From: an uncultured Gammaproteobacteria bacterium
Lineage (GTDB): Bacteria; Patescibacteriota; Microgenomatia; CAYXHB01
Length of the DNA stretch: 42,893 nucleotides
Assembly (NCBI GenBank): GCA_964464795.1
Contig: CAYXHB010000001.1
Location: 1 to 42,893, forward strand
Reading direction: 5' to 3'
A program made the position numbers and the translations under genes. The notes under the pieces are model-generated. The model ran no database searches. It was not told the origin of the DNA and saw only the letters and a program-made list of their open reading frames with translations. Positions 13,113-29,873 of this stretch are shown one piece after another; within the stretch, counting starts at the first letter, position 1, and each line of letters opens with the position of its first letter.

Positions 13113-14003
13113 ATGCGAGTGATTAAGTTAATATTATTTTTTGTGGTTATTTGGCCAAGTTTGGCCTGGCCGGCCATCAGCTGGGCCCAAGAAGACATGT
13201 TGAGTGTGGAATCGGAAATAAGCACGGAGCAGTTATTAATGGATGAGGCTGAAGGAGAAGATTTAGGTGAAGGGGAAATTTTAAACTTGCCAGTGTTAGC
13301 GAATAATGAGTCTGATGGGCGAGATTTGAGCCGGCTGCGGCCTTGGAATATTTTGGCCTGGGGGGTCAGATACGCTCTGAATGCCGGGGTGACCAGTGAA
13401 ACGTTGGTGTTCGTGTTGCTATTACCCGCGTTGGCTACTCTAGTTACTCTGTGTCGGTATGTAATCGGGTTGCCGACCTTGGGAATGATTTTACCCTTGG
13501 CGTTGGCGGCGACGTTGCTTGCCACAGGACCGTTACTGGGAGCTGGTCTGTTGGCAGCTATCATGATTGGTTCGATCGGCGGAAAGTATTTGTTACGACA
13601 TGTAAGGATAATGCATTTTGCTAAATTATCAATGTCTTTTTTGTTAGTAAGCTTTACGGTGCTGGGGATGATTACATTGGGGACTTTGACCATTAAGAGC
13701 CATGCCGAGGAGCTGACTTTTTTGCCTGTATTGGTGTTGATAATCTTAAGTGAAAGACTGACGGCTTTGGGACTCAATCGGACTTTGTCTGCGACTCTGT
13801 ATATTTTCTTAGTTAATTTGGGAATTGCTTTGGTAGGGTTTGTGATGTTGTCTTCGGGGCAGGTACAGAGAATGGTATTGCTTTATCCTGAGTTAATCTT
13901 GGGACTAATACCAATCAATGTAATTTTGGGGCGGTACTTTGGGCTGAGATTAACCGAGTTGTTGAGATTTAAAACTTTAATTACTCCGTATGCCGGTAAG
14001 TGA
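13113..14003 (+). CDS. 7-TM membrane protein of the type usually fused to an inactive transglutaminase (7TM_transglut-like)
   Basis: Signal peptide, then an acidic linker, then 7 TM helices beginning 'LLLPALATLVTLCRYVIGLPTLGMILPLALA'. Overlaps the downstream ATP-grasp gene by 14 nt, which is the usual partner arrangement. Confidence 0.65.
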   Translation: MRVIKLILFFVVIWPSLAWPAISWAQEDMLSVESEISTEQLLMDEAEGEDLGEGEILNLPVLANNESDGRDLSRLRPWNILAWGVRYALNAGVTSETLVFVLLLPALATLVTLCRYVIGLPTLGMILPLALAATLLATGPLLGAGLLAAIMIGSIGGKYLLRHVRIMHFAKLSMSFLLVSFTVLGMITLGTLTIKSHAEELTFLPVLVLIILSERLTALGLNRTLSATLYIFLVNLGIALVGFVMLSSGQVQRMVLLYPELILGLIPINVILGRYFGLRLTELLRFKTLITPYAGK

Positions 14004-15432: not shown

Positions 15433-15861
15433 TTAACGCAAGACGGTTATATACTCGCCTGGGTTAAGTTCACTTGAAGCTGAAGCTACAATTCTACCGT
15501 TGGCGTCTCGGAAAATTGTATAGCCTGTGTTGGCTTCAGTTCCGTCAACCGGATCCATAGGGATGGCTGGAATATAAGTAGGAACTAATTCGTCACTCAA
15601 GTCGACTCCAGCAGTACCTAACTGGCCTGGAGTAGTAGTAATGTCAGTTGGAGCATTGCCGTCGTTTTCAACTGTGTATTGATATATGGCGTTGACAACC
15701 TGATAGACGTCATTGCGCCTTTGGGTGTCACGGGCGTTAGCGAATTGACGGAGAGGATTGACAGCTACAAGCACGACTGCGGCTAAGATAGCGATAATTC
15801 CAATTACGACCATCAATTCGATAAGGGTAAACCCGCGTTGTTTTGTATTGGTTTGATTCAT
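15433..15861 (-). CDS. Type IV pilin / pseudopilin (prepilin-type N-terminal cleavage/methylation domain)
   Basis: 'KQRG|FTLIELMVVIGIIAILAAVVLVAV' class III signal peptide. I prefer ATG at 15861, with GGGAGG upstream, over the TTG at 15885 used by the ORF track. Confidence 0.9.
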   Translation of the reverse strand: MNQTNTKQRGFTLIELMVVIGIIAILAAVVLVAVNPLRQFANARDTQRRNDVYQVVNAIYQYTVENDGNAPTDITTTPGQLGTAGVDLSDELVPTYIPAIPMDPVDGTEANTGYTIFRDANGRIVASASSELNPGEYITVLR

Positions 15862-15917
15862 GGGCAGATGGTCACCTCCCTTCAAGATATGATTTATCTG
15901 CCCTTAGCGCGAGATAA

Positions 15918-16172
15918 TTACGGCGTCTGGGCAGACTCACTTGTTTCCAGCGTAACAGAGCTATCTGGGACTGTCAAACGGTCTTGGGTAGCAAACTCCA
16001 CTGCGTCTTCAATTTGCTTAGGGCTTAGTTCGATGTTTTGGGTTGAGGGAACTTCCTGAGGTTTGGTTTGAGACAGTTGGATGTACATAAGCCAAAAGCT
16101 AACTCCCCCGACTATCAGCCAAGTGATAATGGTGAGAAAAATGGGAAGGTTTTGTTTAATTTGTTTGAACAT
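15918..16172 (-). CDS. Small single-pass membrane protein inside the pilus operon, hypothetical
   Basis: 84 aa with TM helix 'LPIFLTIITWLIVGGVSFWLM'. Overlaps the PilO-like gene end by 17 nt. Confidence 0.5.
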   Translation of the reverse strand: MFKQIKQNLPIFLTIITWLIVGGVSFWLMYIQLSQTKPQEVPSTQNIELSPKQIEDAVEFATQDRLTVPDSSVTLETSESAQTP

Positions 16173-16788
16173 AGAGTTTACCTTTGAGAGTAGCTTTGAC
16201 TGAGTTTTCCGGCTCTGGTCTAATAGCTAAATCAACATCTTGAGGCGTATAAACCAAACCTCCAGCAGTCAGGTCGTCGAGCAACTTCTCTACCTCTGTA
16301 ATACTAGCAGCAGTGAAAGTAATAGTAACAGGCAGGAAAGGAAACTGCTCTCCTTGGCCGAGTACCGGAGCATTGGTGTCAAAACGGAGTTGGGGGTCAG
16401 GGAAGGCTGATAAACGATGGTTGATGCGTTCAATTACCCCAATGAGTTGTTGTTCTGAAGGGAAAACTTGATTAATGGTGTCTAGTTCATCTTGGTATTG
16501 GGTTTGGAGTTGCTGAATTTGAGCAGCAGAGGCTTGTTGTTTACGCAGGTTCTCCCCTGCTGCGTGGCGTTTGATGACTTCTGAAGTGAGCTGATAGAAA
16601 CCTAAAATCATGCCAATGAAAAGGAGGACTAGCATGATAGAAATAAGCAGACTTAAATTCTGAGGTTTGGGCGGCGGTGAAACAGCCGGAGTCTTGGTTT
16701 CGGACGGTGCGGGAGCTTGAGTTTGAGGAGACGATGGCTCCTCTTGCTTGGGGGCTTGAGTTGGAGGAGGATTGGAGGTAGCGTTCAT
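16156..16788 (-). CDS. PilO-like pilus assembly protein
   Basis: Start re-set to ATG 16788, 2 nt after the upstream stop at 16793-16795. Pro-rich N-terminus, TM helix (LLISIMLVLLFIGMILGF), coiled coil (QIQQLQTQYQDELD), C-terminal alpha/beta domain. Confidence 0.6.
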   Translation of the reverse strand: MNATSNPPPTQAPKQEEPSSPQTQAPAPSETKTPAVSPPPKPQNLSLLISIMLVLLFIGMILGFYQLTSEVIKRHAAGENLRKQQASAAQIQQLQTQYQDELDTINQVFPSEQQLIGVIERINHRLSAFPDPQLRFDTNAPVLGQGEQFPFLPVTITFTAASITEVEKLLDDLTAGGLVYTPQDVDLAIRPEPENSVKATLKGKLYVQTN

Positions 16789-16792
16789 AGGA

Positions 16793-18142
16793 TTATTGAT
16801 TGGAAGATTGGAGGTTAAGAGTAATTGTAAAGGGAACTGGTTGTCTTTGTTCGAAAACAGATAACGGCAACCTGACTTCGTTAAAAACTTCACTTTCGTC
16901 CAGGGCCGACTGGAAAGCGAAAACATCGGCTTGATTCGGGGCAACTCCGACGACAACTAAAGATTCTGTGGCGAGAACGAAGCGCATGCTGCTAATAGTT
17001 ATTTGAGGAGGGAGGCTCTGGTTAACTGCCTGGATAGCATGAAAAGCACTGCGACGGGCACGTGACTGGTTAATCAAGTTTATCTGAGCCTCTGACTTAT
17101 GGAATTGTTCTGATAACGCTTGCAAGTCAGCAGCCGGAGGAGCAACTGGACGCGAGTTACTGTAGGCTTGCCAGGCAAGAAAAATGAAGTAAGCGGCTAG
17201 GAAATTGAGGAGCAGCAAGGCCCAAGCACTGAGTGAAAAAATCCGTTTACGGCCATTGGAGTTACTAACGCTTGTGTAATCAATGTGGTATTGGGTAGGG
17301 ACTAAGTTGATGGTTTGACGGTCTTGAGGTGGAGCAACTGGTTTACTGGCTACGGAATCAATAAAAGCAGTTTGGGAAGAGGGGAGGATTTTGGCAGGGA
17401 AACTAAGTTTGAGTGCTGAGGCAACTTGCTCTGCTAATGAGCCAATGACGTAAACATGGGTAATTTCGAGGTTGTTTTTCTTGTGATAGTAATTGAGCAT
17501 TTGAGTGGCGACGGCGGCCACGTTGTCGACTTCTGAAACTACTGAAACTAGGTCAATAACATTTTTTTGGTTACTGACAACCAGCACTGACTCGGCTTCG
17601 GCTTCGATAATCAGGCCAGGGAGTTCTTGGGTGGAGATTATCCGGCAGAGAACCATGCTGGGAGTATCAATATCAACCACTTTGACTCCGTGAGAGCGCA
17701 AGACGTCAACATATTGCTCAAGAGGGGCCCGCGGGGCGGCGACGACCTGTAAGGTGGTAATAGGAGCTTCTTCTTTGATAATCTGCCAGTCGATAATCAT
17801 TTGCTCAGGCGGCAGAGGTAAGTAGTTTTGGACTTGCCAAAGAACGGTTTCGTGCATTTCCTGAACAGGAGAGGTTATTTCTACTAACCGAGTGAGGATG
17901 CTGGATTCGGGAATACAGATGGTGACTCCTTGTCCAGGACTCCAGCCTGAGGTAATCTCTTTAATGGCCGGGTCAGTGGAAAGATGGGAAAAGTCAGTTA
18001 TAGTTTCAGGTGCGAGAGTGGCCTGTCTGTAAGTTTTTTTGGACTGGGTTTTGGCAATAATTTGGCTACCAGTAAAACGGATTGCTTGTTTACTGATATA
18101 AAATTTAGTGTTGGATGAGGGCGATTTTGGAGTTTTGTTCAT
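16793..18142 (-). CDS. PilM-PilN fusion protein (actin-like ATPase-fold PilM domain, TM helix, PilN-like domain)
   Basis: The N-terminal ~270 aa resemble PilM. These are followed by 'INLVPTQY' (PilN INLLP-like), a TM helix 'IFSLSAWALLLLNFLAAYFIFLAW', and a periplasmic-type domain. Confidence 0.7.
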   Translation of the reverse strand: MNKTPKSPSSNTKFYISKQAIRFTGSQIIAKTQSKKTYRQATLAPETITDFSHLSTDPAIKEITSGWSPGQGVTICIPESSILTRLVEITSPVQEMHETVLWQVQNYLPLPPEQMIIDWQIIKEEAPITTLQVVAAPRAPLEQYVDVLRSHGVKVVDIDTPSMVLCRIISTQELPGLIIEAEAESVLVVSNQKNVIDLVSVVSEVDNVAAVATQMLNYYHKKNNLEITHVYVIGSLAEQVASALKLSFPAKILPSSQTAFIDSVASKPVAPPQDRQTINLVPTQYHIDYTSVSNSNGRKRIFSLSAWALLLLNFLAAYFIFLAWQAYSNSRPVAPPAADLQALSEQFHKSEAQINLINQSRARRSAFHAIQAVNQSLPPQITISSMRFVLATESLVVVGVAPNQADVFAFQSALDESEVFNEVRLPLSVFEQRQPVPFTITLNLQSSNQ

Positions 18143-18151
18143 AGGGAAAAT

Positions 18152-19366
18152 TTAGCCGCCTTGTTGTTGGAGGCCGCCGACAAGACTATAGATTGGACCA
18201 ATAATTGAGACAACCATAATTCCCACCGCGACTCCAACCATAAGTAGTAAGACAGGTTCGATAATGTTGGCAAAATTATTGAGGATATCCTCTACTTCAT
18301 TATCATAATACTCGGCTGAGTCTTTGAGCATGGTTTCCACAGAACCGGTTTTTTCACCGGCCGCAACCATGCGGACAGTGATTTGAGGGAATAGCTTGGG
18401 GTAACCCCGCATGAGGTCAGCTAAGGAGATACCTTTTTGCAGTTCTAAATGGAACGGCGCGACAGCTTTTTGATAGGTAGCTTGATTGAGGGATGTGGTG
18501 ACAATTTGCATGGCCTGGTTAATCGGCACGCCGCTGGCAAGCAGAGTACTCAAGATGCGGCAGAAACGAGCTAAATCAAGATAATTAAGCAAGCGCCTGA
18601 TGGCTGGAATGACTTTGACTGTGGCGAGGGTGATTTTTTTGCCCAGGGCTGTTGTGAGAAAAATAACCAAACCAACAAATCCAGCTAAAATGGCTGGCAA
18701 AATGAAAATAATGTTGTCACTGACGAATAAGCCTACCTGCATAATTAGTCGGGTGTAAAAAGGTAAACTGACTCGCATACTTAAGAAAACCGGAGCCATG
18801 CGAGGGAGGACGAAGAAGAGTAACAACATCCCGACTCCTAACATAGCAATTACAATGATAATCGGGTACATGAGAGCGCTTTTGACTTTTTGGCGGAGTT
18901 TGTATTCGTCGTAGAGAAAGTCGGCTAAGTAAGTCAGGGATTCGTTCAAAGTCCCTGATAACTCCCCTGCTTTGATTAAAGCAATGATAATAGGGTCGAA
19001 AACTTTGGGGTATTGTTCAAAGGCGGTGGAGAGGTTTTTGCCCTGTTGCAACTGGGTGTAGGTGGTAGAGAGAATTTCTTTGAGCTTGGCGTTGGATGTG
19101 TCGTGGGCAAAAACATCGACTGACTCGGGTAACGATAATCCTGCACTTAACATAGTGGCTAGGTAACGACAGAGATTGGCTTTTTCAATTAAAGGAACGG
19201 AGTTGCCCCATTTTTTGTTTTTTTTGGTGGAGACTTTCTTGAGCCAGACGATTTTGAAGCCTTGGCCTTGGAGTTCTTGTTTAGCACTGTTACTATCGGT
19301 GGCGTTGAGAGTGTCTTGGACAACTTGTCCTTGGGGGGTGGTGACTCGGTATTCAAAGGTGGCCAT
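18152..19366 (-). CDS. pilC: Type IV pilus inner-membrane platform protein PilC (T2SS F family)
   Basis: Duplicated GspF-type domains, 3 TM segments, 'AGEKTGSVETML' motif. Start set at ATG 19366 (MATFEYRV...), which avoids overlap with pilB. Confidence 0.9.
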   Translation of the reverse strand: MATFEYRVTTPQGQVVQDTLNATDSNSAKQELQGQGFKIVWLKKVSTKKNKKWGNSVPLIEKANLCRYLATMLSAGLSLPESVDVFAHDTSNAKLKEILSTTYTQLQQGKNLSTAFEQYPKVFDPIIIALIKAGELSGTLNESLTYLADFLYDEYKLRQKVKSALMYPIIIVIAMLGVGMLLLFFVLPRMAPVFLSMRVSLPFYTRLIMQVGLFVSDNIIFILPAILAGFVGLVIFLTTALGKKITLATVKVIPAIRRLLNYLDLARFCRILSTLLASGVPINQAMQIVTTSLNQATYQKAVAPFHLELQKGISLADLMRGYPKLFPQITVRMVAAGEKTGSVETMLKDSAEYYDNEVEDILNNFANIIEPVLLLMVGVAVGIMVVSIIGPIYSLVGGLQQQGG

Positions 19367-19385
19367 GTGATTTTGGGATGGGAAA

Positions 19386-21074
19386 TTAATCTTGTTCTTT
19401 AACTGCGCGCAGGACTTCTTCGACAGTGGTGAGTCCGGCGGTGACTTTATCAAGACCGTCCTCAATCATGGTAGTCATGCCTTGTTTTTGAGCCAGTTCT
19501 AAGATGTTATCGGCAGAAGCGTTGTCGACGATGAGTTTACGAATGTCCCCGTCAATTTCGAGAACTTCGTAGACACTAATCCGACCGCGGAAACCTGTAT
19601 TGCCGCATTCGTGACAACCGTGACTGCGGAAAGTAGTGACTTTTTTGATTTGAGGGCGATACTTGCCAAAGACCTCGGTAGCCGTGGGGTCGTCAGCGAT
19701 GCGGTAGATGCAAGATGGACACAGACGTCTGACTAAGCGCTGGGCCATGACCACATTGAGGGTGGAAGCGAGAAGAAAAGATTCTACGCCCATGTCGATT
19801 AGTCGAGGGATAGCTCCAACCGCACTATTGGTGTGAAGAGTGGAGAGGACCAAGTGACCGGTAAGGGAAGCGTGGATGCCCATTTCAGCTGTTTCTGTGT
19901 CGCGGATTTCCCCGACCATGATGATGTTGGGGTCATGGCGCAGCAAGGCTCGTAAGCCGGCCGCGAAAGTCAGACCTGTGGCCGGATTAACCTGAATTTG
20001 ATTAACCCGATGGATGCCGTATTCAATAGGGTCTTCGACTGTACAGATATTGACTGCCGTGGTGTTGAGCATGTTGAGGATACTGTATAAAGTGGTGGTC
20101 TTACCTGAACCCGTAGGGCCGGTAACCAGGAGCATGCCGTGAGGGCGGGTGATGTTGTGACGGATAATTTCCAAAGCGCCGCCGCTCATGCCTAATTCCG
20201 ATAAACTCAAAGGGCGGGCTGATTCGAACAACATCCTCATGACGATGTTTTCGCCGTAGAAGGAAGGGATGATAGAAACTCGCAGAGCAATAGACTGGTC
20301 AGCATAGGAAAATTTGAAACGGCCGTCTTGTGGGACGCGGTGTTCGTCTATCTTGAGCTGGCCTAAGATTTTGATGCGGGCGACGATAGCGGGTTGGATT
20401 TGTTTGGGTAGAGCAATGATGTCACGCAAGTTACCGTCGATGCGAAAACGAATCATTAGGGCGTTATTGAGAGTTTCGACATGAATATCCGAGGCACGCT
20501 CAGCAATAGCGTACTCAAGAATAGTGTCGAGAATTTTAACGACCGGTAAATCTGAGGCTACCTTGGTAATGTCGGTTTGGGTGCGGGCAGTGGATTTTTT
20601 GATATTTTCGGATAAGATATCGGCGAAGACTTTCTTGATACCTTTTTTGTATTGAGTGAGAGCTTGAGTGAGGTCGTTAGGGAGAATGTAGTAAGGGATG
20701 ATTTTGAGCTTGGTGGCGCGGCGGGCAATTTCTTGGGATTCGAAGTTTTGCGGGTCGGTGAAAGCGATGGAGATTTCAGTGTCAGTTTTTTCGAAAGGAA
20801 TAATCTGATAAGAACGAGCTTGGTTTTCTGGAACGGTTTCGAGGACTTCTAGTGGGATGCTTTTGGTTTTGAGAGTGATAAAAGGCACTCCTTGAGCCTC
20901 AGCAATTAACTGACCCAAAGCCTGCTCGGAAATAATGCCGCGGAAAATGAGAATATCCTCAATAGGACGCTCTAGTTCGTCGGCAGCCTCTTTGGCCGAG
21001 AGGTAGTCGGCTTCGGATACGAAACCTGAGTTAACCAGGATGTCTTGTAAATTGGCGGGCAGATGGGATGACAT
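19386..21074 (-). CDS. pilB: Type IV pilus assembly ATPase PilB (GspE family)
   Basis: T2SSE N-terminal domain, Walker A 'GPTGSGKTT', Asp/His boxes, tetracysteine 'CPSC...CHEC'. Confidence 0.93.
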   Translation of the reverse strand: MSSHLPANLQDILVNSGFVSEADYLSAKEAADELERPIEDILIFRGIISEQALGQLIAEAQGVPFITLKTKSIPLEVLETVPENQARSYQIIPFEKTDTEISIAFTDPQNFESQEIARRATKLKIIPYYILPNDLTQALTQYKKGIKKVFADILSENIKKSTARTQTDITKVASDLPVVKILDTILEYAIAERASDIHVETLNNALMIRFRIDGNLRDIIALPKQIQPAIVARIKILGQLKIDEHRVPQDGRFKFSYADQSIALRVSIIPSFYGENIVMRMLFESARPLSLSELGMSGGALEIIRHNITRPHGMLLVTGPTGSGKTTTLYSILNMLNTTAVNICTVEDPIEYGIHRVNQIQVNPATGLTFAAGLRALLRHDPNIIMVGEIRDTETAEMGIHASLTGHLVLSTLHTNSAVGAIPRLIDMGVESFLLASTLNVVMAQRLVRRLCPSCIYRIADDPTATEVFGKYRPQIKKVTTFRSHGCHECGNTGFRGRISVYEVLEIDGDIRKLIVDNASADNILELAQKQGMTTMIEDGLDKVTAGLTTVEEVLRAVKEQD

Positions 21075-21083
21075 AGAGTTTGT

Positions 21084-21485
21084 TTAAGTGTCAGACTCGG
21101 GTTTAGAACCCTTGGGTGAGGGTTTGATATATTTATGGACAACTTCAATTATTTGACTGGGGGTTAGTTTGGCCTTGATAAGGAATTCGTTGGCGCCCAT
21201 GTCTAGAGCGGCTTTTTGTTCTTCTTCCTGGTTGAGATTGGAGAGACAAATTACAGGAGTGGATTTGGTTTGGCGGGTGGAGCGGATTTCCTCCAAGACA
21301 TCCAGTCCGTTCATACGCGGCAGCATGATATCCAGCAGAATGACATCAGGTTCTTGAGAGATAGCCTGCTCAAGAGCTGACTGGCCGTCTGTACAAGTGA
21401 TGACCTCATGTCCATCTTGCTGAAGATGGGTTGAATAAATCTTGATTAGGAAAGCATCGTCGTCGGCGATGAGAATTTTGGACAT
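21084..21485 (-). CDS. Single-domain response regulator (CheY-like receiver only)
   Basis: 'KILIADDD...DVILLDIMLPRMNG...ICLSN...GANEFLIK'. Start set at ATG 21485. No output domain. Confidence 0.9.
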   Translation of the reverse strand: MSKILIADDDAFLIKIYSTHLQQDGHEVITCTDGQSALEQAISQEPDVILLDIMLPRMNGLDVLEEIRSTRQTKSTPVICLSNLNQEEEQKAALDMGANEFLIKAKLTPSQIIEVVHKYIKPSPKGSKPESDT

Positions 21486-21489
21486 TAAA

Positions 21490-21702
21490 TTACTGTTTAT
21501 TTGATAATTGATAAATATGGTTTTTGAGTGATTCGATCTCTTCAAGGAGAGCGGCTGACTCATTGGTGGCAACTTGTAGCAATTCGTTAGGTTGGGACTG
21601 GGTTTGCTCAAGTTCCCAGAGTGCGGTTCTGATTTTGGTTATACGAGCAAGGATTTGGTGAAAAACTATATGAGTATCGTCTATAGGATGATGGCTGGTC
21701 AT
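21490..21702 (-). CDS. Small helical hypothetical protein between the two receiver genes
   Basis: 70-aa ORF whose stop lies 4 nt before the downstream receiver start. Heptad-like sequence (LWELEQTQ...LLEEIESLKNHIYQL). No clear SD, so coding status is uncertain. Confidence 0.4.
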   Translation of the reverse strand: MTSHHPIDDTHIVFHQILARITKIRTALWELEQTQSQPNELLQVATNESAALLEEIESLKNHIYQLSNKQ

Positions 21703-21759: not shown

Positions 21760-22137
21760 TTACTCAAGCAAGCGGGTTACTTTGGCAAGAAACTGATCGG
21801 GGTTAAGGTCTGACTTGATAATGACGCTATCAACGCCTAAATTTTTACCTTCTGTGAAAATACCATCATGGGATAAGTTGGTCATATAGACAATCTTATG
21901 ATTGGGTTGTTTGGGTGGATGAGATTTGACATCTAGAAGCACGCTGCGGCCGTCCTTCTCAGGGAGCATGACGTCCAGTAGAACTAGATCATAACCGCCT
22001 TTTTTCATGGCTGCGGCTGCCTGGTCGCCGTCAATGGCTACATCAACTGCGTAGCCTGCCTCGGTGAGAACATCAAAGTAAATCTCACGCAAGAATTCTT
22101 CGTCTTCGACCAGGAGGATTTTTTTTTGTGCGGGCAT
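21760..22137 (-). CDS. Single-domain response regulator (CheY-like receiver only)
   Basis: 'KILLVEDEEF...DLVLLDVMLPEKDG...'. 125 aa, no output domain. Confidence 0.9.
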   Translation of the reverse strand: MPAQKKILLVEDEEFLREIYFDVLTEAGYAVDVAIDGDQAAAAMKKGGYDLVLLDVMLPEKDGRSVLLDVKSHPPKQPNHKIVYMTNLSHDGIFTEGKNLGVDSVIIKSDLNPDQFLAKVTRLLE

Positions 22138-22175: not shown

Positions 22176-24332
22176 CTAAAAAATAGCCTTGGTGGGCAAG
22201 CTGAAATAGAAAGTGGAACCTTTACCAAGTTTTGATTCAACCCAAATTTGGCCACCGTGTTTTTTGATAATCTGATTACAGATAAAGAGCCCAAGGCCAG
22301 TGCCGCCGGATTCAGCTACACTGACCAAAGTGCCCTCAAGGCGGCCGAACTTGGTGAAGAGCTTGGGCAAGTCTTTCTTAGAAATCCCCTTGCCTGTATC
22401 CGAGATGGCTGTCTGGACAGCGTTTTTCTCGGCCGTGAAACTAATATCAATTCTGCCGCCAATAGGCGTGAACTTGATGGCGTTACCAATTAAGTTAATA
22501 AAAACCTGATGAAGTTTGTCAGGGTCAGCATTGACGAGTTTGGGGGCTGGAGATTGAAGGGTGATGGTGATGTTTCTCTGTGTGGCTTGGGATTGTAGTT
22601 CATCGAGGGCTATCTTGGCTCTGGCGCTTAAATCAAGCTGAGCTGCGTGCAGCTCAATCCTGCCGGCTTCAATACGGGAAACGTCCAGCATGTCGTTGAC
22701 CAGAGCTAAAAGCCGGTCCGTGGATAAATAGGCTCTGTCTAGGTATTGGCGGCTTTTTGGGCTAATTGTGTCACCATTATTGGATTTGTTAAGAATCATC
22801 CATAGATAACTCTTGATAGCCGTCATGGGAGTGCGCAGTTCGTGCGAAGCAATGGAGAGAAATTCGTCTTTGATCTTGTCCAGTTCAGTCAAACGTTTGT
22901 TAGCCTCGCGCAGGTCGGTGGTAGCTGATTTTATTTCTTGTTTGAGTCTGATATTAAAGTTGCTAATCTCAAGGAAAGAACGGGCGTTTTGGATGGCGAT
23001 AGCCAGTTCTGGCGCCAGAATCTGAAGCAGCTGAATATCCTGGTCTGAGTAAATATCGCCTGAGGACTTTTCGCCTAAAATTAGTTGGCCGACGTATTGA
23101 TGTTTAAAGGTTAGCGGGACGATCACGCCAATATGATATTCGCGCATGATTTGTTTGATGTGGTTCTCTGGTAACTCTTCAAAAACCAAGATTTTTTTTG
23201 TATTGGCTGAGAAAAGCTGGGCGTATCTCTCCAGATCATAGAGACTTTTGGCTCCATCTCGGCCCAAAATATTAATCTTAGTATGACCACTGCTCTCAAG
23301 CAAAACAACAAAGGCTATCTCAGTTCTGAGGTTGGTTTTGAGCTGGAAGATGGTTTTTTTTATTAAATCTTCCAGGTCGATGTTGACGGAAATTAACCGA
23401 TTTAGGTGAGTTAACAACTCTTGAGTGTCATATCTGCCTTTGAACAAAAAGCGGTCAGTGAGGTGTTCGATGTACTTGCGCAAAGGTTGAAAAGTGTAGG
23501 CAAGAACCAAAGCCAAGGCGGTGGAAATACCGAATTGATCGCTATTGAGCTGACTCGGAAATAGATAACGACCAAGAACAAACAGCATTGAAGCGTAAAA
23601 GCTCGAGAGAATGAAAATTAACAAAGTGTAAGAAACAGTACGAGCAACAACTAATCGAACTTCCATCACACGATGCCTGACAATGGCATAAGCAATGATG
23701 ATATTAAAAACAAGTACATAAATGGGGAGAAAAGGAACAAAATAGCCAATTTTAAAAAAAACAACCAACAGGAAATTAAAAATTAGAATGAGTGAGAATA
23801 AGACAAAAAATCCTAGAAAAACTAGGCTGAGCTTACGCTTTTCTATTTTTTTAGCTTTGCGATAATGAAGGTAGATAATAATTAAACCGCTAAGGACTGT
23901 AAGGATAGTGTGGATGAGAAAAATCGGCATGCCAATTCCAGGCTCAGGAATGACTAGGTTTTCTGGAGTGATCTGGACATCTTTGAAGATAAAGTTCGTG
24001 AAGCCAAGGAAAAACAGTGCTATTGAGCTAACGATTATTGGATATTTAACTGAATTGCGAATAGTAATTTCGTCTTGAGGAAAAGTGACAAGGAAGAAAA
24101 AGACAGCGGCGTTAATGAGAGCCCCGAGGGAGATAATGAGTTTGGATAAAAATATTTTTATATTAACGCCAGGAATTAAATATAGCTCGCTATTGACGAC
24201 TAAGTAGACCGTGATTATCCCTAATAGAATTGTGAAGAGTTTGTTAGTCCAACTTTTGGGATTATTACGATAAATAAGAAGAGCCAGGATTAAATTTCCC
24301 AAAGCAAAGATGGCAAGAAGAACGTGTTGCAT
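22176..24332 (-). CDS. Sensor histidine kinase: N-terminal 7-8 TM sensor region, GAF-like domain, HisKA, HATPase_c
   Basis: About 260 aa of TM helices. GAF-like block (EIAFVVLL...YVGQLILGEK...LLQILAPELAIAIQNA). H-box 'FLSIASHELRTPMTAI'. N, G1 and G2 boxes (NLIGNAIKFT, DTGKGI, GGTGLGL). Confidence 0.9.
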   Translation of the reverse strand: MQHVLLAIFALGNLILALLIYRNNPKSWTNKLFTILLGIITVYLVVNSELYLIPGVNIKIFLSKLIISLGALINAAVFFFLVTFPQDEITIRNSVKYPIIVSSIALFFLGFTNFIFKDVQITPENLVIPEPGIGMPIFLIHTILTVLSGLIIIYLHYRKAKKIEKRKLSLVFLGFFVLFSLILIFNFLLVVFFKIGYFVPFLPIYVLVFNIIIAYAIVRHRVMEVRLVVARTVSYTLLIFILSSFYASMLFVLGRYLFPSQLNSDQFGISTALALVLAYTFQPLRKYIEHLTDRFLFKGRYDTQELLTHLNRLISVNIDLEDLIKKTIFQLKTNLRTEIAFVVLLESSGHTKINILGRDGAKSLYDLERYAQLFSANTKKILVFEELPENHIKQIMREYHIGVIVPLTFKHQYVGQLILGEKSSGDIYSDQDIQLLQILAPELAIAIQNARSFLEISNFNIRLKQEIKSATTDLREANKRLTELDKIKDEFLSIASHELRTPMTAIKSYLWMILNKSNNGDTISPKSRQYLDRAYLSTDRLLALVNDMLDVSRIEAGRIELHAAQLDLSARAKIALDELQSQATQRNITITLQSPAPKLVNADPDKLHQVFINLIGNAIKFTPIGGRIDISFTAEKNAVQTAISDTGKGISKKDLPKLFTKFGRLEGTLVSVAESGGTGLGLFICNQIIKKHGGQIWVESKLGKGSTFYFSLPTKAIF

Positions 24333-24361: not shown

Positions 24362-25432
24362 TTAGTCAATTGTTTTCAATGACTTGGGAATATCAAGGAA
24401 AGCGCGGTAAGAACGAGTGTCTTTTTGAAGTAAGATTTGTTCGACTGCATGAGTAACGACAACTGATAAAAGTTGCGACGCAATAATTAGTTGTGGGTAA
24501 CTGGTGAGAGTTGAGCCTACTTCATAAACCGAATTGAGCATTTTGGGCGAATGTAACTCTTTGCCGATCATTTGGATGAAAAATTCAGTCACGTCTTTCT
24601 TAGTAATTGTGGCTTTCTTCAAATCTGCGGGATTGAGCTTGTTTAAAAACAAGTCAGTGGTCAAGTTTTGGTCTATGTCATATCGTTCTACAATGAGCAA
24701 GATACCTTTTTCTATATCGGCACCCGAAACTACTGGAATTCCAAGTTTTTTGGCATATTGGCGTAGTTTGAGTTTGAGTGGAAAACTATCAAAAGCATCA
24801 ATTACGACCTTGACGTTGCTTAAAAAGGCAGATAAATTTTTACTGTTAAGACCTTGGGGGAAGATGTTGATCGTCAAGTATGGGTCAATTTCGTGAAGTT
24901 CTGTTTGAACAACTTTAGTTTTGGGTTGGTATAGATGAGGAAGAGAAAAAGTGGCTCGGTTGAAGTTGCTTATCTCTACCTGGTCGTAGTCAGCTAAGTT
25001 GTATTCACGGCCTACACCATAACGGACAAGAGCATTGGCAATATTTTTCCCACTGCTAAGGCCAGCGATGGCGATGGTTGAATTATGGATTTGCTGTAAT
25101 TCTTGTGCTGTTAACAGATTTAAGTTGCGACAAGTTCGTAATTCAAAATATTGACGTTCCTCGAGTAAATGAAGCAGCAAGTTGTGACTAGGATAGTGAA
25201 CCCATCTCCCTTGAAGGTTTCGCTGTTTAATAGATGAAAGTGCAGGGTGGTGCTGGAAAATTATTTTCTGCTGCTCAGCAGGCGTGAAGGAATAATATTG
25301 AGGATTTTTGAAAATAAACCAGTCTTGGAACATTTCTAAATAATTGTCTTTTATTTCAGTTTGCTTGGGCAATCTGTCTATTAAGTTGGATAATTCTGTT
25401 TGAGAATTTAGTTGATAGACTTTGTGGTTCAT
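24362..25432 (-). CDS. ThiF/MoeB/E1-like adenylyltransferase-family protein with an N-terminal extension
   Basis: 'RWVHYPSHNLLLHLLEERQYFELRTCRN' precedes a Rossmann block 'IAIAGLSSGKNIANALVRYGVGREYNLADYDQVEISNFNR', which matches the E1-like nucleotide-binding pattern. Confidence 0.7.
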   Translation of the reverse strand: MNHKVYQLNSQTELSNLIDRLPKQTEIKDNYLEMFQDWFIFKNPQYYSFTPAEQQKIIFQHHPALSSIKQRNLQGRWVHYPSHNLLLHLLEERQYFELRTCRNLNLLTAQELQQIHNSTIAIAGLSSGKNIANALVRYGVGREYNLADYDQVEISNFNRATFSLPHLYQPKTKVVQTELHEIDPYLTINIFPQGLNSKNLSAFLSNVKVVIDAFDSFPLKLKLRQYAKKLGIPVVSGADIEKGILLIVERYDIDQNLTTDLFLNKLNPADLKKATITKKDVTEFFIQMIGKELHSPKMLNSVYEVGSTLTSYPQLIIASQLLSVVVTHAVEQILLQKDTRSYRAFLDIPKSLKTID

Positions 25433-25433
25433 A

Positions 25434-26837
25434 TTAAATGAAGTGTTTTAGTTTGGTGTTTTTGTACTTGTCGTGATTGGCTTCCTCGGAACGGTAAATA
25501 AAATTGATGCCGCTTCCGCGAGTGTGTTCTTGTGTGACTCTATAATCGGCGTTTATTCCTTTGAGCATGGCGAAGAATTCTTGTTCAAATTTCTCTTGGT
25601 CAGTTTTTTTGAGTCTCTGATGGGGTTTAAAGTAAAGAATGACCTGAAGGCGATTTTTCATACCACTAGTGTTGACGACTCCGTACTGGAAGTTTTGAGA
25701 GAAAAGAGAAGCATAACGTGAGTTTTGGATGCAATGCCGAATATCCTCTGTATAGACATTGGCGGAATTAATTAAAATTGAATCTGTCCGACCGTGGACA
25801 AAAAGTAAGTTATCTGGCAACTGATCCTTGGAAATACGAATGCCTAATTCTCTACATAACTCCCTTATTTGATGTTGAGTAAGAATTCCGCCGCGATCGT
25901 GAATGTTATATCTTATTAAAGGAATCGGCTGATCGGCCGTGATGACAATTTCGTCTTTGATAACTTCAATATGTTTTGATAAAGGATTGTATTCAACTAA
26001 GGATGGAGTGCTTTGAGAGTGAAAATATTTTTTTATGAGAGCTGGCCGAGATTGAATTTTTTGGAGTATCTTAATAGAAAGCGGAGTTTCCACTCCTATG
26101 ATGCCGGTATCTGAGCAGGCGTACATACCAATAATGTCTATCCTTGATTGAGGTGAATTAACTTTTGCTTTTAAAGCTGAACGCCAGTGCTCTGAAAACC
26201 TATCTCCTGTCAAGATAAATTTGAGATTTAAATTCGCAAATGGTAATTCTTTCTCGGTCATTTCTTCAATTAAATCGGTAACGAGAGGCGGATACCCGAT
26301 TATAATGATTTGATCGTAGAATCGGTATAACTCTCTGATGGCAGTGGTGGCGTTATGAACATTCATGCCTGGAGTGACAATGGTGATCTTATTAGTTCTG
26401 GCAGCAGCAATGGCGAGCATAGTTTCTAGGATTCCACCGATCCACATACCAAGAGCCAAGGTATTTACTATTAAGGTCCTCTGTTTTGATATATCAAAGA
26501 ACTGTTCATAAAAGACTATTTTTCCAGGAATAATCTGGTCGTCGATAGACTGATCTCTTAACCACAAAGTGGGATTTCCAGTTGATCCCGAACTTGTGGT
26601 GATCAAATAATAGTCCGAAAGTTGCTTATTATCGCGAATCCGTTGATGAACGGGATACTTATTGAGGTAATTACGTCGATCTGTGATGGGAAGTAAGGAA
26701 AAGTCTTGGACTGTTTTGAGTTCAGGAATTTTAATCTTGTTTTTTTTAAGAAATTGGGAATAAGCTGAACAGTTATCTGCAACTGATTTAAATAAATTGA
26801 AGGCTTTTTCTAAAGGAAGATCTGCGTTATTTTTCAT
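25434..26837 (-). CDS. PaaK / coenzyme F390 synthetase-like adenylate-forming enzyme (aryl/acyl acid ligase)
   Basis: 'TTSSGSTGNPT' (SSGTTGKP-type AMP motif), 'NTLALGMWIGGILE', and a 467-aa size match the phenylacetate-CoA ligase family. Overlaps the upstream lyase by 11 nt and ends 1 nt before the E1-like start. Confidence 0.75.
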   Translation of the reverse strand: MKNNADLPLEKAFNLFKSVADNCSAYSQFLKKNKIKIPELKTVQDFSLLPITDRRNYLNKYPVHQRIRDNKQLSDYYLITTSSGSTGNPTLWLRDQSIDDQIIPGKIVFYEQFFDISKQRTLIVNTLALGMWIGGILETMLAIAAARTNKITIVTPGMNVHNATTAIRELYRFYDQIIIIGYPPLVTDLIEEMTEKELPFANLNLKFILTGDRFSEHWRSALKAKVNSPQSRIDIIGMYACSDTGIIGVETPLSIKILQKIQSRPALIKKYFHSQSTPSLVEYNPLSKHIEVIKDEIVITADQPIPLIRYNIHDRGGILTQHQIRELCRELGIRISKDQLPDNLLFVHGRTDSILINSANVYTEDIRHCIQNSRYASLFSQNFQYGVVNTSGMKNRLQVILYFKPHQRLKKTDQEKFEQEFFAMLKGINADYRVTQEHTRGSGINFIYRSEEANHDKYKNTKLKHFI

Positions 26838-28491
26838 ATTCTTTCAGAGAGACGGATGACTCAAAGAGGTCGGTAAAGTCAAACAATTTGTTTGATAGTT
26901 CTTCTACATATTGACCTAGAGGCTGCTCTACTTTAATAAAAGGAACTATCTTTCGTATGAGTTCATAAACAGGCTGGGTTTGCGGCGAGAGCAAGTGTGG
27001 TCCGCCTCGCAAATCTACGGCCTGCGCTGCTGCCATAGCGTTGGTGGCAATAGATAGCTTGGCTAGTTTAATAACTTCTCTGGTCATAATAGCTGAGGCC
27101 GGTGCTTGCGAAGTAATATCTTGATTGTGTTCTTCATGAACCCCAAACATAGTGTTAATCGGAACACTAAGAGCAGTGGCGTAGACTTCAAGCATGCCCA
27201 TTTGGGTCTGTAGTCCTTTGAAAGTACACTGAGTGACCGCGTGTGGCGAGGAAAGGTTTGCAGGCAGACCTCGAGAGAATTTCGGGTTTACCAGGCGAGA
27301 TAAATGACGGTCATTTTGCTTAACTATCAAAGTACCTACTTTGCGCAGCGCATCTAAGGTATCGGCCATGTGCATCGCAAGAAAATTGCCTCCACTTACC
27401 CACTGATATGGCTCTTCGTTTTCAAAGACGTGTTCGTTAGTTGTCCAAAGAGGATTGTCAGAAACGCTATTAGCGTTAATGGTAACTGTTTCCCACGCTT
27501 GGGATAAGCGTTCCCACGATGGCCCAAAGTATTGTGGGAGGCAACGCAAGCTATAGGGGTCCTGGGTTTCGTCTCCATTTTGGTGTTGATGCTTTAGCAA
27601 ATCCTGTTGGGATAACTGGCTGCCCAAAAGTGAATTCCTGAGGATGGCAGAAACATATTTTTGGCCAGCATGAGGTCTAACGTTAGACAAAAAAGGATGA
27701 AAACTACGGACCTTACCATGCAAAGCTTGAATAGTAAGTGAAGAGATAAGTAAGTTGATAACAAACAAGCAACTTAAGTCATATAAGGCAAAGGCAGCTG
27801 CTGCAGTCGAAAAGTTATCACCGTTTGCAAGAGCCAATCCTTCTTTGGGTGCCAAAGTAATTGGAGAAATTCCATATTTATCTTGCAACTCGGTGGACGT
27901 AATTACACGGCCGCGATTGTTTGTCAACTTAGCAGTAGGATGTTGAAGCAAAGTGGAAATAATTCGGCCATTTTGAGCAAGATCACCAGATGCGCCGACG
28001 GATCCATATTCACCGACAATTGGAGTAAGACTTTTATTTAATAAATTGATTACTGACTGGAGTATCTCACTGCGGATACCAGAATATCCTGAGGCCAACA
28101 TATTTACACGAACAAACATCGCTGACCTCACAATCTCTGTGGGAATAGCATTACCAGTTGAAACGTCAATATGGACGATAGCATTTGAGATATCTCTGGC
28201 CTGATTAATGCGAGACTCTTTTGCTCCTTGGTTGAGGACGCGGGCACTTTGGCCTCCATAGGAACCTGTAACTCCGTATATGGCTTGCCCGTTTTCAATT
28301 TGTTTTTTAATTTGTGAAATTATTTCATTGTTTTGACTTGCAACATGCGGGTCAAGATTGATGGAAACGGGAGTTTTATCCCGACCTACGGCAACTATCT
28401 CCGGGATGCTAGTTTGTTTAGCTCCGTCAATAATAATCTGTGACGAACCACGACGGTGGACAATTTGACTAATAAAATCGTTTTGTTTCAT
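26827..28491 (-). CDS. MIO-dependent aromatic amino-acid ammonia-lyase or aminomutase (HAL/PAL/TAL family), divergent
   Basis: Ala-Ser-Gly MIO triad in 'GSVGASGDLAQNG' (codons at 27985-27993). 'IYGVTGSYGG' catalytic-Tyr loop. 'SVSDNPLW'. 'NQDITS' (QEDHVS-like). Confidence 0.88.
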   Translation of the reverse strand: MKQNDFISQIVHRRGSSQIIIDGAKQTSIPEIVAVGRDKTPVSINLDPHVASQNNEIISQIKKQIENGQAIYGVTGSYGGQSARVLNQGAKESRINQARDISNAIVHIDVSTGNAIPTEIVRSAMFVRVNMLASGYSGIRSEILQSVINLLNKSLTPIVGEYGSVGASGDLAQNGRIISTLLQHPTAKLTNNRGRVITSTELQDKYGISPITLAPKEGLALANGDNFSTAAAAFALYDLSCLFVINLLISSLTIQALHGKVRSFHPFLSNVRPHAGQKYVSAILRNSLLGSQLSQQDLLKHQHQNGDETQDPYSLRCLPQYFGPSWERLSQAWETVTINANSVSDNPLWTTNEHVFENEEPYQWVSGGNFLAMHMADTLDALRKVGTLIVKQNDRHLSRLVNPKFSRGLPANLSSPHAVTQCTFKGLQTQMGMLEVYATALSVPINTMFGVHEEHNQDITSQAPASAIMTREVIKLAKLSIATNAMAAAQAVDLRGGPHLLSPQTQPVYELIRKIVPFIKVEQPLGQYVEELSNKLFDFTDLFESSVSLKEYEK

Positions 28492-28541: not shown

Positions 28542-28550
28542 TGATATAAT
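28542..28550 (+). promoter_or_regulatory. Extended -10 promoter (TGATATAAT) for RNase P RNA
   Basis: TGnTATAAT ends about 7 nt before the first helix of the RNase P RNA. Confidence 0.45.
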
Positions 28551-28557
28551 TACATTT

Positions 28558-28862
28558 ATGGATCGGGGTGCGGGATAAAATCCGCATTCAGGAAAGTCCA
28601 GACAGCATGAAGCACGGCGAGGTAGGTAACTACCTTCCCCGATGAAAATTGGGGCGAGTCAGAGCCACAGAGACGAGTAATGTGAAACGGCTCCGGTGCA
28701 AATCGGAGTGCCGACTCTCTAGAGGGGAGTGGGCGGCAATCCTCCCGGCTGCAAGTTCCGAGTTTCGCGTTACGAGGCGCTTCACCCAAGGACTGTAAAG
28801 TCCACGCGAAGAAGAGAACGCACCAGACAGATGATCCATCAAGACAGAATCTGGCTTATATA
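28558..28862 (+). ncRNA. rnpB: RNase P RNA (bacterial type A-like, compact); ends uncertain by about 15 nt
   Basis: Universally conserved blocks on the + strand: 'CAGGAAAGTCCAGACAG' (CR-I), 'GTAATGTGAAACGGCTCCGGTGCAAATCGGAGTGCC' (J11/12-P12 region), 'AAGACAGAATCTGGCTTAT' (CR-V/P4 3' strand). P2 pairing ATGGATC (28558-) with GATCCAT near the 3' end. P3 hairpin GCGGGATAAAATCCGC. Confidence 0.85.
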
Positions 28863-28870
28863 TTTTCTAT

Positions 28871-28892
28871 CCCCGCTTAATTATTTGCGGGG
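28871..28892. terminator. GC hairpin between convergent rnpB and the AI-2E transporter gene (possible bidirectional terminator)
   Basis: CCCCGC-N10-GCGGGG. The transporter stop codon (28881-28883) sits in the loop. No flanking U-run, so weak. Confidence 0.3.
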
Positions 28893-29873
28893 GTAGAATT
28901 CCTGAAACACAGCCCTGCCCACTAAAACACAAGGAACAGCCAAAATTGCGCCCGCTACACCGGCCAGAGTGAGTCCGACCACTAAGGCGATAATGGTGAC
29001 CAGAGGTCTAACCCCAGTATTTTTGGCCATAATTTGCGGCACGATAACATTATTTTCGACCTGCTGCACCAGAACACTCCAGGCTAAAGCTCCCACTCCA
29101 GGCAAGGTGCCGGCACTGAATCCGGAGATAATAGCGGGAATAGCAGCGATAGTCGGCCCGATGTTAGGAACCAGTTCGAGAAATCCAGCCACTATGGCCA
29201 AAGGCAGAGCATAAGGGATACCTAGAAGAGCAAAACCAACATAGGATAATAAGCCCACAATGAACATGAGCATTAATTGGGCCCGAACCCAGCCGCCCAT
29301 TTCAATTTCAATCTGATTAACGAGTCTCTCAATGCGGGTTTCTAAACTGCGGTCGCCTAAAAGAGTGCTTAGATAACGGTGAAGGTTTTTGCGTTCGAGG
29401 AGTAAGTAGAAACTAATTACTGCAGTACTGAAGACATTCAAAACATTGGAGAAAAAGCCTGAGACTATTCCAAAGAGATTGGTGGAAAGGCCGCCCAGTT
29501 GGGAAAGAAATTGGGCAAACATAGCTGTGTCAACTTGATACTCTCTGCCTAAACTAGAAACCAACTTGGGGAGTTGGTTTATCAGGCGGCCAGTTTGGTC
29601 GACCAGCGGGGGAACTATCAAAGATACAAAAATCCCTAATATCAAAACACACACAAGATAAACCAAGGTAACCGAAGTTGCCCGGTTAGGACTGTAGTTG
29701 TGAAATTTCCAGTTTTGGATTCTAGTTACCAGTGGATTTAGCGAGGCCATGATAATTAAGGCGATAAACATTTGAATTAAGATGAAGCGCAGTTGATAGA
29801 TAAGGAAAGCGCCTACGACAATCCCGAGAGCGGTTAGGAGACTTTTAGTCGTGATTTCGATTTTCTGAGGCAT
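28881..29873 (-). CDS. AI-2E family transporter (PerM/UPF0118-like permease)
   Basis: Eight TM helices and the family's conserved core 'GIPYALPLAIVAGFLELVPNIGPTIAAIPAI'. Confidence 0.85.
   Translation of the reverse strand: MPQKIEITTKSLLTALGIVVGAFLIYQLRFILIQMFIALIIMASLNPLVTRIQNWKFHNYSPNRATSVTLVYLVCVLILGIFVSLIVPPLVDQTGRLINQLPKLVSSLGREYQVDTAMFAQFLSQLGGLSTNLFGIVSGFFSNVLNVFSTAVISFYLLLERKNLHRYLSTLLGDRSLETRIERLVNQIEIEMGGWVRAQLMLMFIVGLLSYVGFALLGIPYALPLAIVAGFLELVPNIGPTIAAIPAIISGFSAGTLPGVGALAWSVLVQQVENNVIVPQIMAKNTGVRPLVTIIALVVGLTLAGVAGAILAVPCVLVGRAVFQEFYPRK

Follow-up and report, generated by a model that had tools for sequence, protein, structure and literature searches.

An operon of a MIO lyase, a PaaK-family ligase and a ThiF-like cyclase linked to a 7TM sensor kinase in Microgenomates-type bacteria

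Gene content and extent of the operon

The DNA analyzed here, referred to as the window, comprises the 42,893 nucleotides (nt) of positions 1 to 42,893 of contig CAYXHB010000001.1 (assembly GCA_964464795.1), which is deposited under the name of an uncultured Gammaproteobacteria bacterium and assigned by GTDB to the Patescibacteriota (Microgenomatia; CAYXHB01). Its minus strand carries a block of three enzyme genes, namely a 4-methylideneimidazol-5-one (MIO) lyase (gene 1, 26827..28491, 554 amino acids (aa), PF00221), a ligase of the PaaK family (gene 2, 25434..26837, 467 aa, assigned by PaaK models and fold) and a ThiF-like cyclase (gene 3, 24362..25432, 356 aa, PF00899 and PRK07877), with no further gene inside the block. 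An earlier reading made from the letters alone (the sequence-only reading) had described this tight packing, and recomputation from the coordinates confirmed it, with an overlap of 11 nt between genes 1 and 2 and a spacer of 1 nt between genes 2 and 3. The same reading had ended the module with the trio, which did not hold, as a sensor histidine kinase (22176..24332, minus strand; HisKA_7TM, GAF, HisKA and HATPase_c in Pfam) and response regulators belong to the same unit. The kinase gene starts 29 nt past the ThiF-like gene and is followed after 38 nt by a receiver-only response regulator of 125 aa (21760..22137, minus strand; PF00072 alone). A second receiver-only regulator is located at 21084..21611 on the same strand (PF00072, E=6e-25); its true start is probably the Met at about 21482, since the receiver domain begins at residue 46. 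Neither regulator possesses a DNA-binding output domain.

Upstream of the lyase, a bacterial class A RNase P RNA was found at 28547-28870 on the plus strand (full-length match, 93.1 bits, E=4e-29), which had been missed by a default scan, its score being just below the Rfam gathering score of 100. The odd-looking open reading frames (ORFs) at 28556-28842 are explained by this RNA gene occupying the region, and since the RNA is encoded on the opposite strand, 55 nt from the lyase start, the operon begins at the lyase. It most likely has at least five genes, i.e., those of the three enzymes, the kinase and the regulator(s). An AI-2E transporter gene (28881-29873) was considered as an additional member and dismissed, as the opposite-strand RNase P RNA separates it from the lyase; its recurrence in one related locus (L012) looks like shared synteny. 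Promoter and terminator scans of the window yielded results at chance level. The GC content is 0.380 for the ligase, 0.385 for the ThiF-like gene, 0.415 for the kinase and 0.433 for the lyase, compared with 0.452 for the whole window. Horizontal transfer was considered in view of this dip and set aside, since the dip is mild (0.38-0.43) and the synteny with two related loci (L012 and L013) speaks for vertical inheritance. As the nearest relatives of each of the three enzymes bear the names of Woesebacteria, Roizmanbacteria or Patescibacteria, the window very probably stems from a Microgenomates-type bacterium.

The three enzymes

Gene 1 matches PF00221 over the full length of the model (positions 3-466 of 466, E=2.6e-113), and its closest solved structure is the phenylalanine ammonia-lyase (PAL) of Anabaena (2nyn, E=1e-70). 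The MIO triad, the Tyr-loop and the DNPL motif described in the sequence-only reading are present as A167-S168-G169, Tyr72 and SDNPL, with the triad and Tyr72 being kept in 125-131 of 131 homologues. The "QED-like" motif also reported there turned out to be H-N-Q-D, i.e., the NQD form of PAL and tyrosine ammonia-lyase (TAL), in place of the N-Q-E-D of histidine ammonia-lyase (HAL). As a rule of thumb, selectivity among these enzymes follows a two-residue switch, which is His-Leu in TAL, Phe-Leu in PAL and Ser-His in HAL, and HAL has a Glu (the HAL Glu414 position) where PAL and TAL have Gln. His107-Ile108 of gene 1 align with Phe107-Leu108 of the Anabaena enzyme AvPAL (2nyn), a position which we take to be that of the TAL switch His (RsTAL His89). 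The switch residues and the H-N-Q-D motif are conserved in the orthologues from the related cassettes described below, and His107 is kept in 105 of the 131 homologues. Taken together, gene 1 is a putative aromatic amino-acid ammonia-lyase or aminomutase of TAL-like type, predicted to supply an aryl-acrylic acid, namely p-coumarate.

That gene 1 might be an ordinary histidase of a hut pathway had been raised by the sequence-only reading itself. This was rejected, as gene 1 has neither the Ser-His switch nor an equivalent of Glu414, the HutH model TIGR01225 gives 277.6 bits at a cut-off of 539 bits, and no hutU or hutI is among the major ORFs of the window. The statement that carrier proteins, nonribosomal peptide or polyketide synthases (NRPS/PKS) and LuxI are likewise missing also proved correct for the major ORFs of the window.

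For gene 2, no Pfam family match was obtained. The PaaK model TIGR02155 yielded E=8e-12 and 44.4 bits, far below the equivalog cut-off of 646 bits. By sequence, PaaK2 in the PDB was matched at E=3e-4 by gene 2 and PaaK at E=8.5e-18 by the family profile. The AlphaFold2 model (pLDDT 90.5) matched PaaK1/2 and BT_0428 in Foldseek at E of about 1e-21, as well as NatL2, AjiA1 and ClxA (E 1e-16 to 1e-18; ~14-15% identity). The AMP motif of PaaK-type adenylating enzymes, correctly recognized in the sequence-only reading, reads SSGSTGNPT (residues 82-90) and is accompanied by the hinge RYNIHDRGG and an invariant C-terminal Lys462; SSGSTG, the hinge and Lys462 are conserved across 36 homologues. Sharing only the fold and the ANL motifs with PaaK, gene 2 is an adenylating ligase of the PaaK family (ANL superfamily) within an unnamed subfamily. 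Its predicted role is the activation of the acid and the joining of this acid to an amino acid, in place of the known N-acyltransferase. A precedent for such a direct coupling exists in the same fold family, as NatL2, AjiA1 and ClxA of benzoxazole pathways couple the acyl-adenylate to a second small molecule without CoA. However, the partner of those enzymes is an amidohydrolase and their substrates are aminohydroxybenzoates, whereas a ThiF-like cyclase and aryl-acrylic or keto acids would be involved here. A profile search of genome contigs with a narrow alignment of the PaaK-like proteins returned 3 loci. Cyanobacterial homologues (32% identity) stand alone, and no cultured organism with the cassette was found.

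Gene 3 contains the E1/ThiF block that had been recognized from the sequence (PF00899, E=1.8e-24, residues 102-238). Its best match among the NCBIfam models is PRK07877 (Rv1355c family), aligned at positions 59-342 of 722 (E=1.5e-61, 208.6 bits), followed by a next-best family with 100 bits (7e-29) and by ThiF and MoeB models far under their cut-offs. The whole-protein cut-off of PRK07877 (476 bits) is not reached because only the ThiF half is present in gene 3, and a fusion of ThiF and nitroreductase domains that is 33% identical to gene 3 (E=3e-46; L075) passes it with 503.6 bits. Searching 1.84 billion representative proteins with a profile of the gene 3 family gave 1377 proteins at E<=1e-30, and the best 150 of these 1377 are mostly ThiF-nitroreductase fusions of ~750 aa aligned over profile positions 5-365. 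As this range includes the N-terminal domain, the N-terminal extension, which is ~100 aa long and not ~125 aa as previously given, is a regular part of the family. Asp215, Arg159 and Lys171 of gene 3 align with Asp130, Arg73 and Lys86 of MoeB and are invariant or nearly so in 28 family members; the AlphaFold2 model has a pLDDT of 94.3. Asp217 of TrzS was described as a conserved residue of the ThiF adenylation motif (PMC12856293), and its equivalence to Asp215 rests on that description.

Rv1355c of M. tuberculosis is TrzS, which converts N-acyl tryptophan to an oxazolone (PMC12856293), while OxzB and the Tyz enzymes use N-acyl tyrosine (PMC12596934; de Rond et al.). TrzS and OxzB both cyclise and desaturate N-acyl amino acids (PMC12856293, PMC12596934). 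Gene 3 is, as judged from these matches, a ThiF-like ATP-dependent cyclase of the oxazolone-synthetase clade and the stand-alone counterpart of the N-terminal half of TrzS/OxzB. The view that an E1-type enzyme in this setting has no precedent can accordingly not be upheld.

In the sequence-only reading, the E1-like enzyme was also suggested to adenylate the C-terminus of a protein or peptide, to which the aryl acid would then be conjugated, either as in ubiquitin-like systems or as in RiPPs, the peptides made by the ribosome and modified after translation. This suggestion would agree with the fact that most characterized ThiF-like enzymes act on the carboxylates of proteins, peptides or tRNA (PMC12596934). 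Additionally, the closest solved structure to gene 3 is AclA (9egb), an entry titled "in complex with substrate"; no literature on PDB 9EGB/C/D or AclA was found. However, gene 3 belongs to the one clade of ThiF-like enzymes for which small-molecule substrates are known, the oxazolone cyclase being the one enzyme of this kind named in a 2025 review (PMC12596934). Gene 3 contains a single, non-conserved Cys (residue 101), hence no catalytic Cys, and no CxxC, and the window holds no plausible GG-ending small ORF for a ubiquitin-like, ThiS or MoaD partner. In the intergenic parts of seven cassettes, no small ORF was conserved, all matches being shadow frames inside the large genes, for which reason a RiPP precursor was discarded. 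Genes for an E2, a JAB protein, a protease or a precursor were not found among the window ORFs scanned. Conjugation to a protein or peptide is therefore regarded as highly unlikely. A thiamin/molybdopterin or ubiquitin-like E1 function of gene 3 was dismissed for the missing catalytic Cys and CxxC, the missing GG-ending partner and the low scores of the respective models, and neither gene 2 nor gene 3 groups with thiamin or molybdopterin enzymes, a housekeeping assignment that the sequence-only reading had asked to be checked.

The conserved cassette, its kinase and the pilus genes

The order lyase, PaaK-like, ThiF-like and HisKA_7TM kinase gene is found in seven independent loci, i.e., the window and L001, L011, L012, L013, L094 (a Candidatus Woesebacteria genome) and L096, at amino acid identities of 37-58% and with neighboring genes that either overlap or are separated by a few tens of nt. 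Whether the trio is conserved as a neighborhood, which the sequence-only reading had treated as decisive, can thus be answered positively, with the kinase being present each time. A further locus that is cut at the ligase (L004) shows ligase, ThiF-like gene, kinase and regulator. This constant fourth partner had been overlooked, and it shifts the interpretation from plain metabolism to the production and sensing of a signal.

The wider family was examined in 88 non-redundant loci, obtained from context look-ups of distant ThiF-like relatives and a metagenome profile scan. A PaaK-like gene adjoins the ThiF-like gene in 41 of the 88. Of these 41, 35 extend far enough downstream to be evaluated, and in 34 of them a kinase comes directly after the enzymes, typically overlapping or within ~60 nt. 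Most of the 41 loci also carry a nitroreductase-like (flavin desaturase) gene. The nitroreductase-like genes match the C-terminal half of PRK07877 (L009, E=4e-52; L006, E=7e-50) and the ThiF-like genes of the cassettes its N-terminal half (1.5e-61 to 2e-78), so that the neighboring genes amount to a split TrzS/OxzB. In one locus (L057 10527-13040), a PaaK-like ligase and a nitroreductase-type domain form a fusion of 837 aa, which ties the ligase to the oxazolone-type pathway. A nitroreductase domain fused to an alpha/beta hydrolase was also observed (L025 4656-6587). No acyltransferase of the OxzA/TyzA/TrzA type was found in the cassettes whose genes were scanned against Pfam, and acyltransferase families gave no Pfam match among the major ORFs of the window. 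Tblastn searches with four cassette desaturases yielded no flavin desaturase in the window or in seven window-type loci.

The front gene of the cassettes is variable, yet it always encodes an enzyme that takes the amino group off an amino acid. Besides MIO lyases, an amino-acid dehydrogenase of the ScyB-like type (E=3e-90) and aminotransferases that are either IlvE-like or of class I/II were observed. Such interchangeable deaminating enzymes fit the supply of different acyl donors. No dehydrogenase or aminotransferase was detected within reach of the cassettes of the window clade. The idea that the MIO lyase replaces the desaturase was weakened by the finding that L019, L020, L043, L059 and L057 carry both. 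The lyases of the desaturase cassettes (L019, L020, L043, L059 and L056/L057) are of another type, having an [S/G]-H switch and yet the NQD of PAL/TAL; lyases with this mixed signature are located at L019 2701-4350, L020 6436-7983, L043 6337-7899 and L059 58-1620. The two switch types indicate that one scaffold has taken up different lyases. In Candidatus Scalindua japonica (L095 6685-9683), a lyase with 46% identity to gene 1 was also observed, where no ThiF-like gene is present and the lyase is preceded by a 430-aa protein without family match, a CHAT protease and a PAS/GAF protein; beyond the candidate phyla radiation (CPR), the gene 1 clade is thus found in a different setting as well.

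The combination of a MIO lyase with an aryl-acid ligase is known from the entry into phenylpropanoid metabolism (PAL/TAL and 4CL) and from the supply of the chromophore of photoactive yellow protein (PYP; TAL and pCL). With these pairs the window has in common a MIO lyase with the TAL-type His switch that is translationally coupled to a candidate acid-activating enzyme. The ligase is, however, of the PaaK type (COG1541) instead of the 4CL/pCL type, no CoA-dependent downstream enzyme and no PYP accompany it, and a ThiF-like cyclase and a sensor kinase are added. The same classic entry logic, together with the fact that the PaaK family is best known from phenylacetate catabolism, might suggest that aromatic amino acids are salvaged or catabolized by a route in which the lyase product would be assimilated via a CoA ligase under the control of a substrate-sensing two-component system. 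We consider such a route improbable, since downstream catabolic genes were not found in the window or the related loci, with no paa catabolic genes near gene 2, and since an oxazolone-type cyclase has no catabolic role. Furthermore, the front enzyme swaps with dehydrogenases and aminotransferases, a desaturase is usual in the cassette, and the regulators lack DNA-binding domains.

A second group of loci contains canonical fused ThiF-nitroreductase genes. About half of those that could be evaluated are followed by a set of four genes encoding a ~240-aa protein without family match, a 7TMR-DISMED2/7TMR-DISM kinase, a hybrid receiver-kinase and a receiver. Fused or stand-alone members of the Rv1355c family with a 7TMR-DISM kinase are found at L075 7734-14260 and L031 2245-7776, and also in L052, L061, L081, L084, L088, L090, L033, L038, L071, L072 and L079. 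This second link is independent of the first, so that sensor kinases of two unrelated seven-transmembrane (7TM) families are associated with oxazolone-type enzymes.

The kinase of the window consists of a HisKA_7TM membrane sensor followed by GAF, HisKA and HATPase_c domains. HisKA_7TM was present in all 27 full-length cassette kinases tested, GAF in only 6 of them. One could imagine that the product of the enzymes is a bound cofactor or chromophore of this kinase, which would then be a light or redox sensor, comparable to p-coumarate in PYP or retinal in 7TM rhodopsins. The pairing of a TAL-like lyase with an acid-activating ligase follows the logic of the PYP chromophore, arylidene oxazolones resemble the chromophore of green fluorescent protein, and a 7TM domain is part of the kinase, which in the window clade also contains GAF. 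However, neither Lys nor Cys is found among the nearly invariant residues of the 7TM region, so that a covalent link via a Schiff base or a thioether/thioester is unlikely. GAF is limited to the minority given above, and the names of several source samples suggest groundwater (Hainich, Rifle), a setting in which light sensing would be unlikely. A chromophore is thus very unlikely.

Sequence distances of the 7TM sensor domains correlate with those of the ThiF-like (Spearman 0.37) and the PaaK-like proteins (0.41), whereas the kinase cores reach lower values (0.12 and 0.17), which might be seen as weak support for a pairing of sensor and product. Receiver homologues adjoin the cassette in L004, L011, L012, L013, L094 and L096.

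Directly downstream of the regulators, a full type IV pilus cluster occupies 15433-21074 on the minus strand of the window. It starts 9 nt past the second regulator with a PilB-type ATPase (19386..21074; T2SSE and MshEN), whose membership in the operon is tentative, and further includes PilC (18152-19465; T2SSF), a PilN-like protein (16793-18142; PilN), a pilin (15433-15885; N_methyl) and an unknown 266-aa protein. The order kinase, regulator and PilB is repeated in L012 and L013, and pilus genes are also located near the cassette in L006, L011, L020 and L094. A second PilN-like gene is present elsewhere in the window (2747-3316, plus strand).

These neighbors bear on the possibility that the enzymes produce a secreted or surface-located bioactive compound, i.e., an antimicrobial or host-modulating substance or a modification of the pilus or cell surface, and that the kinase senses another cue, e.g., the host, and either regulates production or acts alongside. 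The evidence from the enzymes is equal for such a compound, pilus genes are found near several loci, and linkage alone gives no direction of information flow. In addition, N-acyl amino acids such as stieleriacines modulate communities, as far as can be taken from a quotation in another study (PMC12856293). On the other hand, receiver-only regulators make transcriptional control of the operon a less obvious role, the link to the kinase is near-obligate (34/35) while adjacency to pilus genes is partial, and divergence in the sensor domain follows that of the enzymes more closely than divergence in the kinase core. We therefore consider this explanation rather unlikely.

Two further observations concern other parts of the window. 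At 13113-15267 (plus strand), two overlapping genes encode a membrane protein of the 7TM_transglut family (PF14402) and an ATP-grasp enzyme annotated as "sugar-transfer associated" (PF14397), a pair that resembles a predicted amidoligase system of its own. The region 5809-7077 encodes a flavin amine oxidase (PF01593) on the plus strand, i.e., the strand opposite to the cassette and ~17 kb away from it.

A possible oxazolone-type signaling pathway

The reading that we tentatively prefer, with slightly less than even confidence, is that the unit encodes both the enzymes for a small aromatic molecule derived from an N-acyl amino acid, probably an oxazolone, and its receptor. The gene identities, the intact catalytic residues, the place of gene 3 in the oxazolone-cyclase clade and the conserved link to the kinase are observed; the substrates, amide formation by the ligase, the product, its function as ligand and an output on pili are envisaged as follows. 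The MIO lyase would deaminate an aromatic amino acid, with the His switch predicting tyrosine and thus p-coumarate as product. As the sole functional handle of an aryl-acrylic acid is its carboxylate, it could serve as acyl donor only. The PaaK-family ligase would then adenylate p-coumarate and transfer it to the amino group of an amino acid, giving an N-coumaroyl amino acid and thereby replacing the acyl-CoA-dependent N-acyltransferase (OxzA/TyzA/TrzA) of known systems. Subsequently, the ThiF-like cyclase would adenylate the carboxylate of the N-acyl amino acid, and the amide oxygen would close the ring to a 2-(4-hydroxystyryl)-oxazol-5(4H)-one. Since the window clade possesses no flavin desaturase, the conjugation of this product would come ready-made from the lyase.

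In TrzS, cyclisation precedes desaturation, and the saturated ring is formed when the desaturase step is blocked (PMC12856293); for this reason, a cyclase without desaturase is chemically sensible. The lipophilic and hydrolytically labile product, or its N-acyl amino acid precursor, might be sensed by the HisKA_7TM domain of the co-transcribed kinase, which would phosphorylate the receiver-only regulators. These, in turn, would work through contacts with proteins, and the neighboring type IV pilus machinery might be their target.

Several points weigh against this proposal. All chemical steps are derived from family membership, and the prediction of tyrosine as substrate leans on the rule of thumb for the TAL/PAL switch. 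The lyase could also be an aminomutase, the sequence being compatible with both. Similarly, gene 2 could merely make a CoA thioester, as ligases with and without CoA look alike in the fold comparison. The desaturase, one of two partners by which known oxazolone synthetases are defined, is absent in the window clade, and a saturated 5(4H)-oxazolone, being reactive, might not be where the pathway ends. The correlation of sensor and enzyme distances is compatible with co-inheritance as well as with co-adaptation. Adjacency of the kinase indicates a functional linkage without direction, so that the kinase might be a regulator of the pathway rather than a sensor of its product. Finally, pilus genes adjoin only part of the loci.

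The window unit shares with the known systems OxzAB (Pseudoalteromonas rubra), TyzACB and TrzAS (Rv1356c-Rv1355c) the clade of the ThiF-like enzyme, its N-terminal domain, the GLSxG loop, the Arg, Lys and Asp residues for ATP-Mg and the predicted small-molecule substrate. In contrast to these systems, a PaaK-family ligase stands in the place of the N-acyltransferase, a deaminating enzyme (the MIO lyase) is added, and a 7TM kinase is a fixed part of the operon. While most related CPR cassettes contain a flavin desaturase of the same family as OxzAB-type systems, albeit as a separate gene, the window clade has none. The hosts differ as well, with known oxazolone synthetases stemming from Proteobacteria or Actinobacteria and the window type from Microgenomates-type bacteria. 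With one defining component in common and two partners absent or replaced, the window unit is not to be filed as OxzAB/TrzAS. With regard to the arrangement of the operon, CqsA-CqsS and LuxM-LuxN are similar in that a multi-pass membrane histidine kinase adjoins the enzymes that make a small hydrophobic molecule. However, no sequence relation to these synthases was seen, the sensors are of the HisKA_7TM or 7TMR-DISM type, and signaling is a proposal here. No literature was found that links oxazolone-type genes to histidine kinases, PaaK-type ligases, MIO lyases or CPR bacteria, and none on Patescibacteria with a lyase and a ThiF protein. The sequence-only reading had expected an undescribed pathway, and the pathway as a whole was indeed not found described in the literature searched.

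Extended to the related loci, the proposal would mean that CPR bacteria carry a modular family of oxazolone signals made from aryl- or keto-acyl amino acids, with the HisKA_7TM kinase as cognate receptor that controls type IV pili through CheY-like regulators and, by way of the pili, host attachment or motility. The modules would comprise a deaminating enzyme that can be exchanged, an amide ligase of the PaaK type, a cyclase of the ThiF type and, in some cases, a desaturase. This extension is more doubtful than the pathway proposed for the window.

Oxazolone natural products were reportedly first found in 2020-2021. The authors of the known systems call their role unknown and possibly one in signaling (de Rond et al.; PMC12856293). 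If the proposed signaling function is true, it would provide the first known biological role and the first receptor for oxazolones. Concrete candidates for a receptor come from the near-obligate operon link to 7TM sensor kinases, which belong to two unrelated families. The HisKA_7TM domain is widespread, and the one reference consulted lists it as a sensor domain and names no ligand for it. An ATP-dependent PaaK-type ligase would be a second way of feeding a ThiF-like cyclase, with interchangeable acid donors, which would be useful for enzyme discovery and biocatalysis. CPR bacteria are thought to be biosynthetically minimal, and dedicated small-molecule signaling in them would be notable if true. 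For Microgenomates-type bacteria, which are hard to grow and whose host interactions are poorly understood, it would point to dedicated chemical signaling that is possibly coupled to type IV pili.

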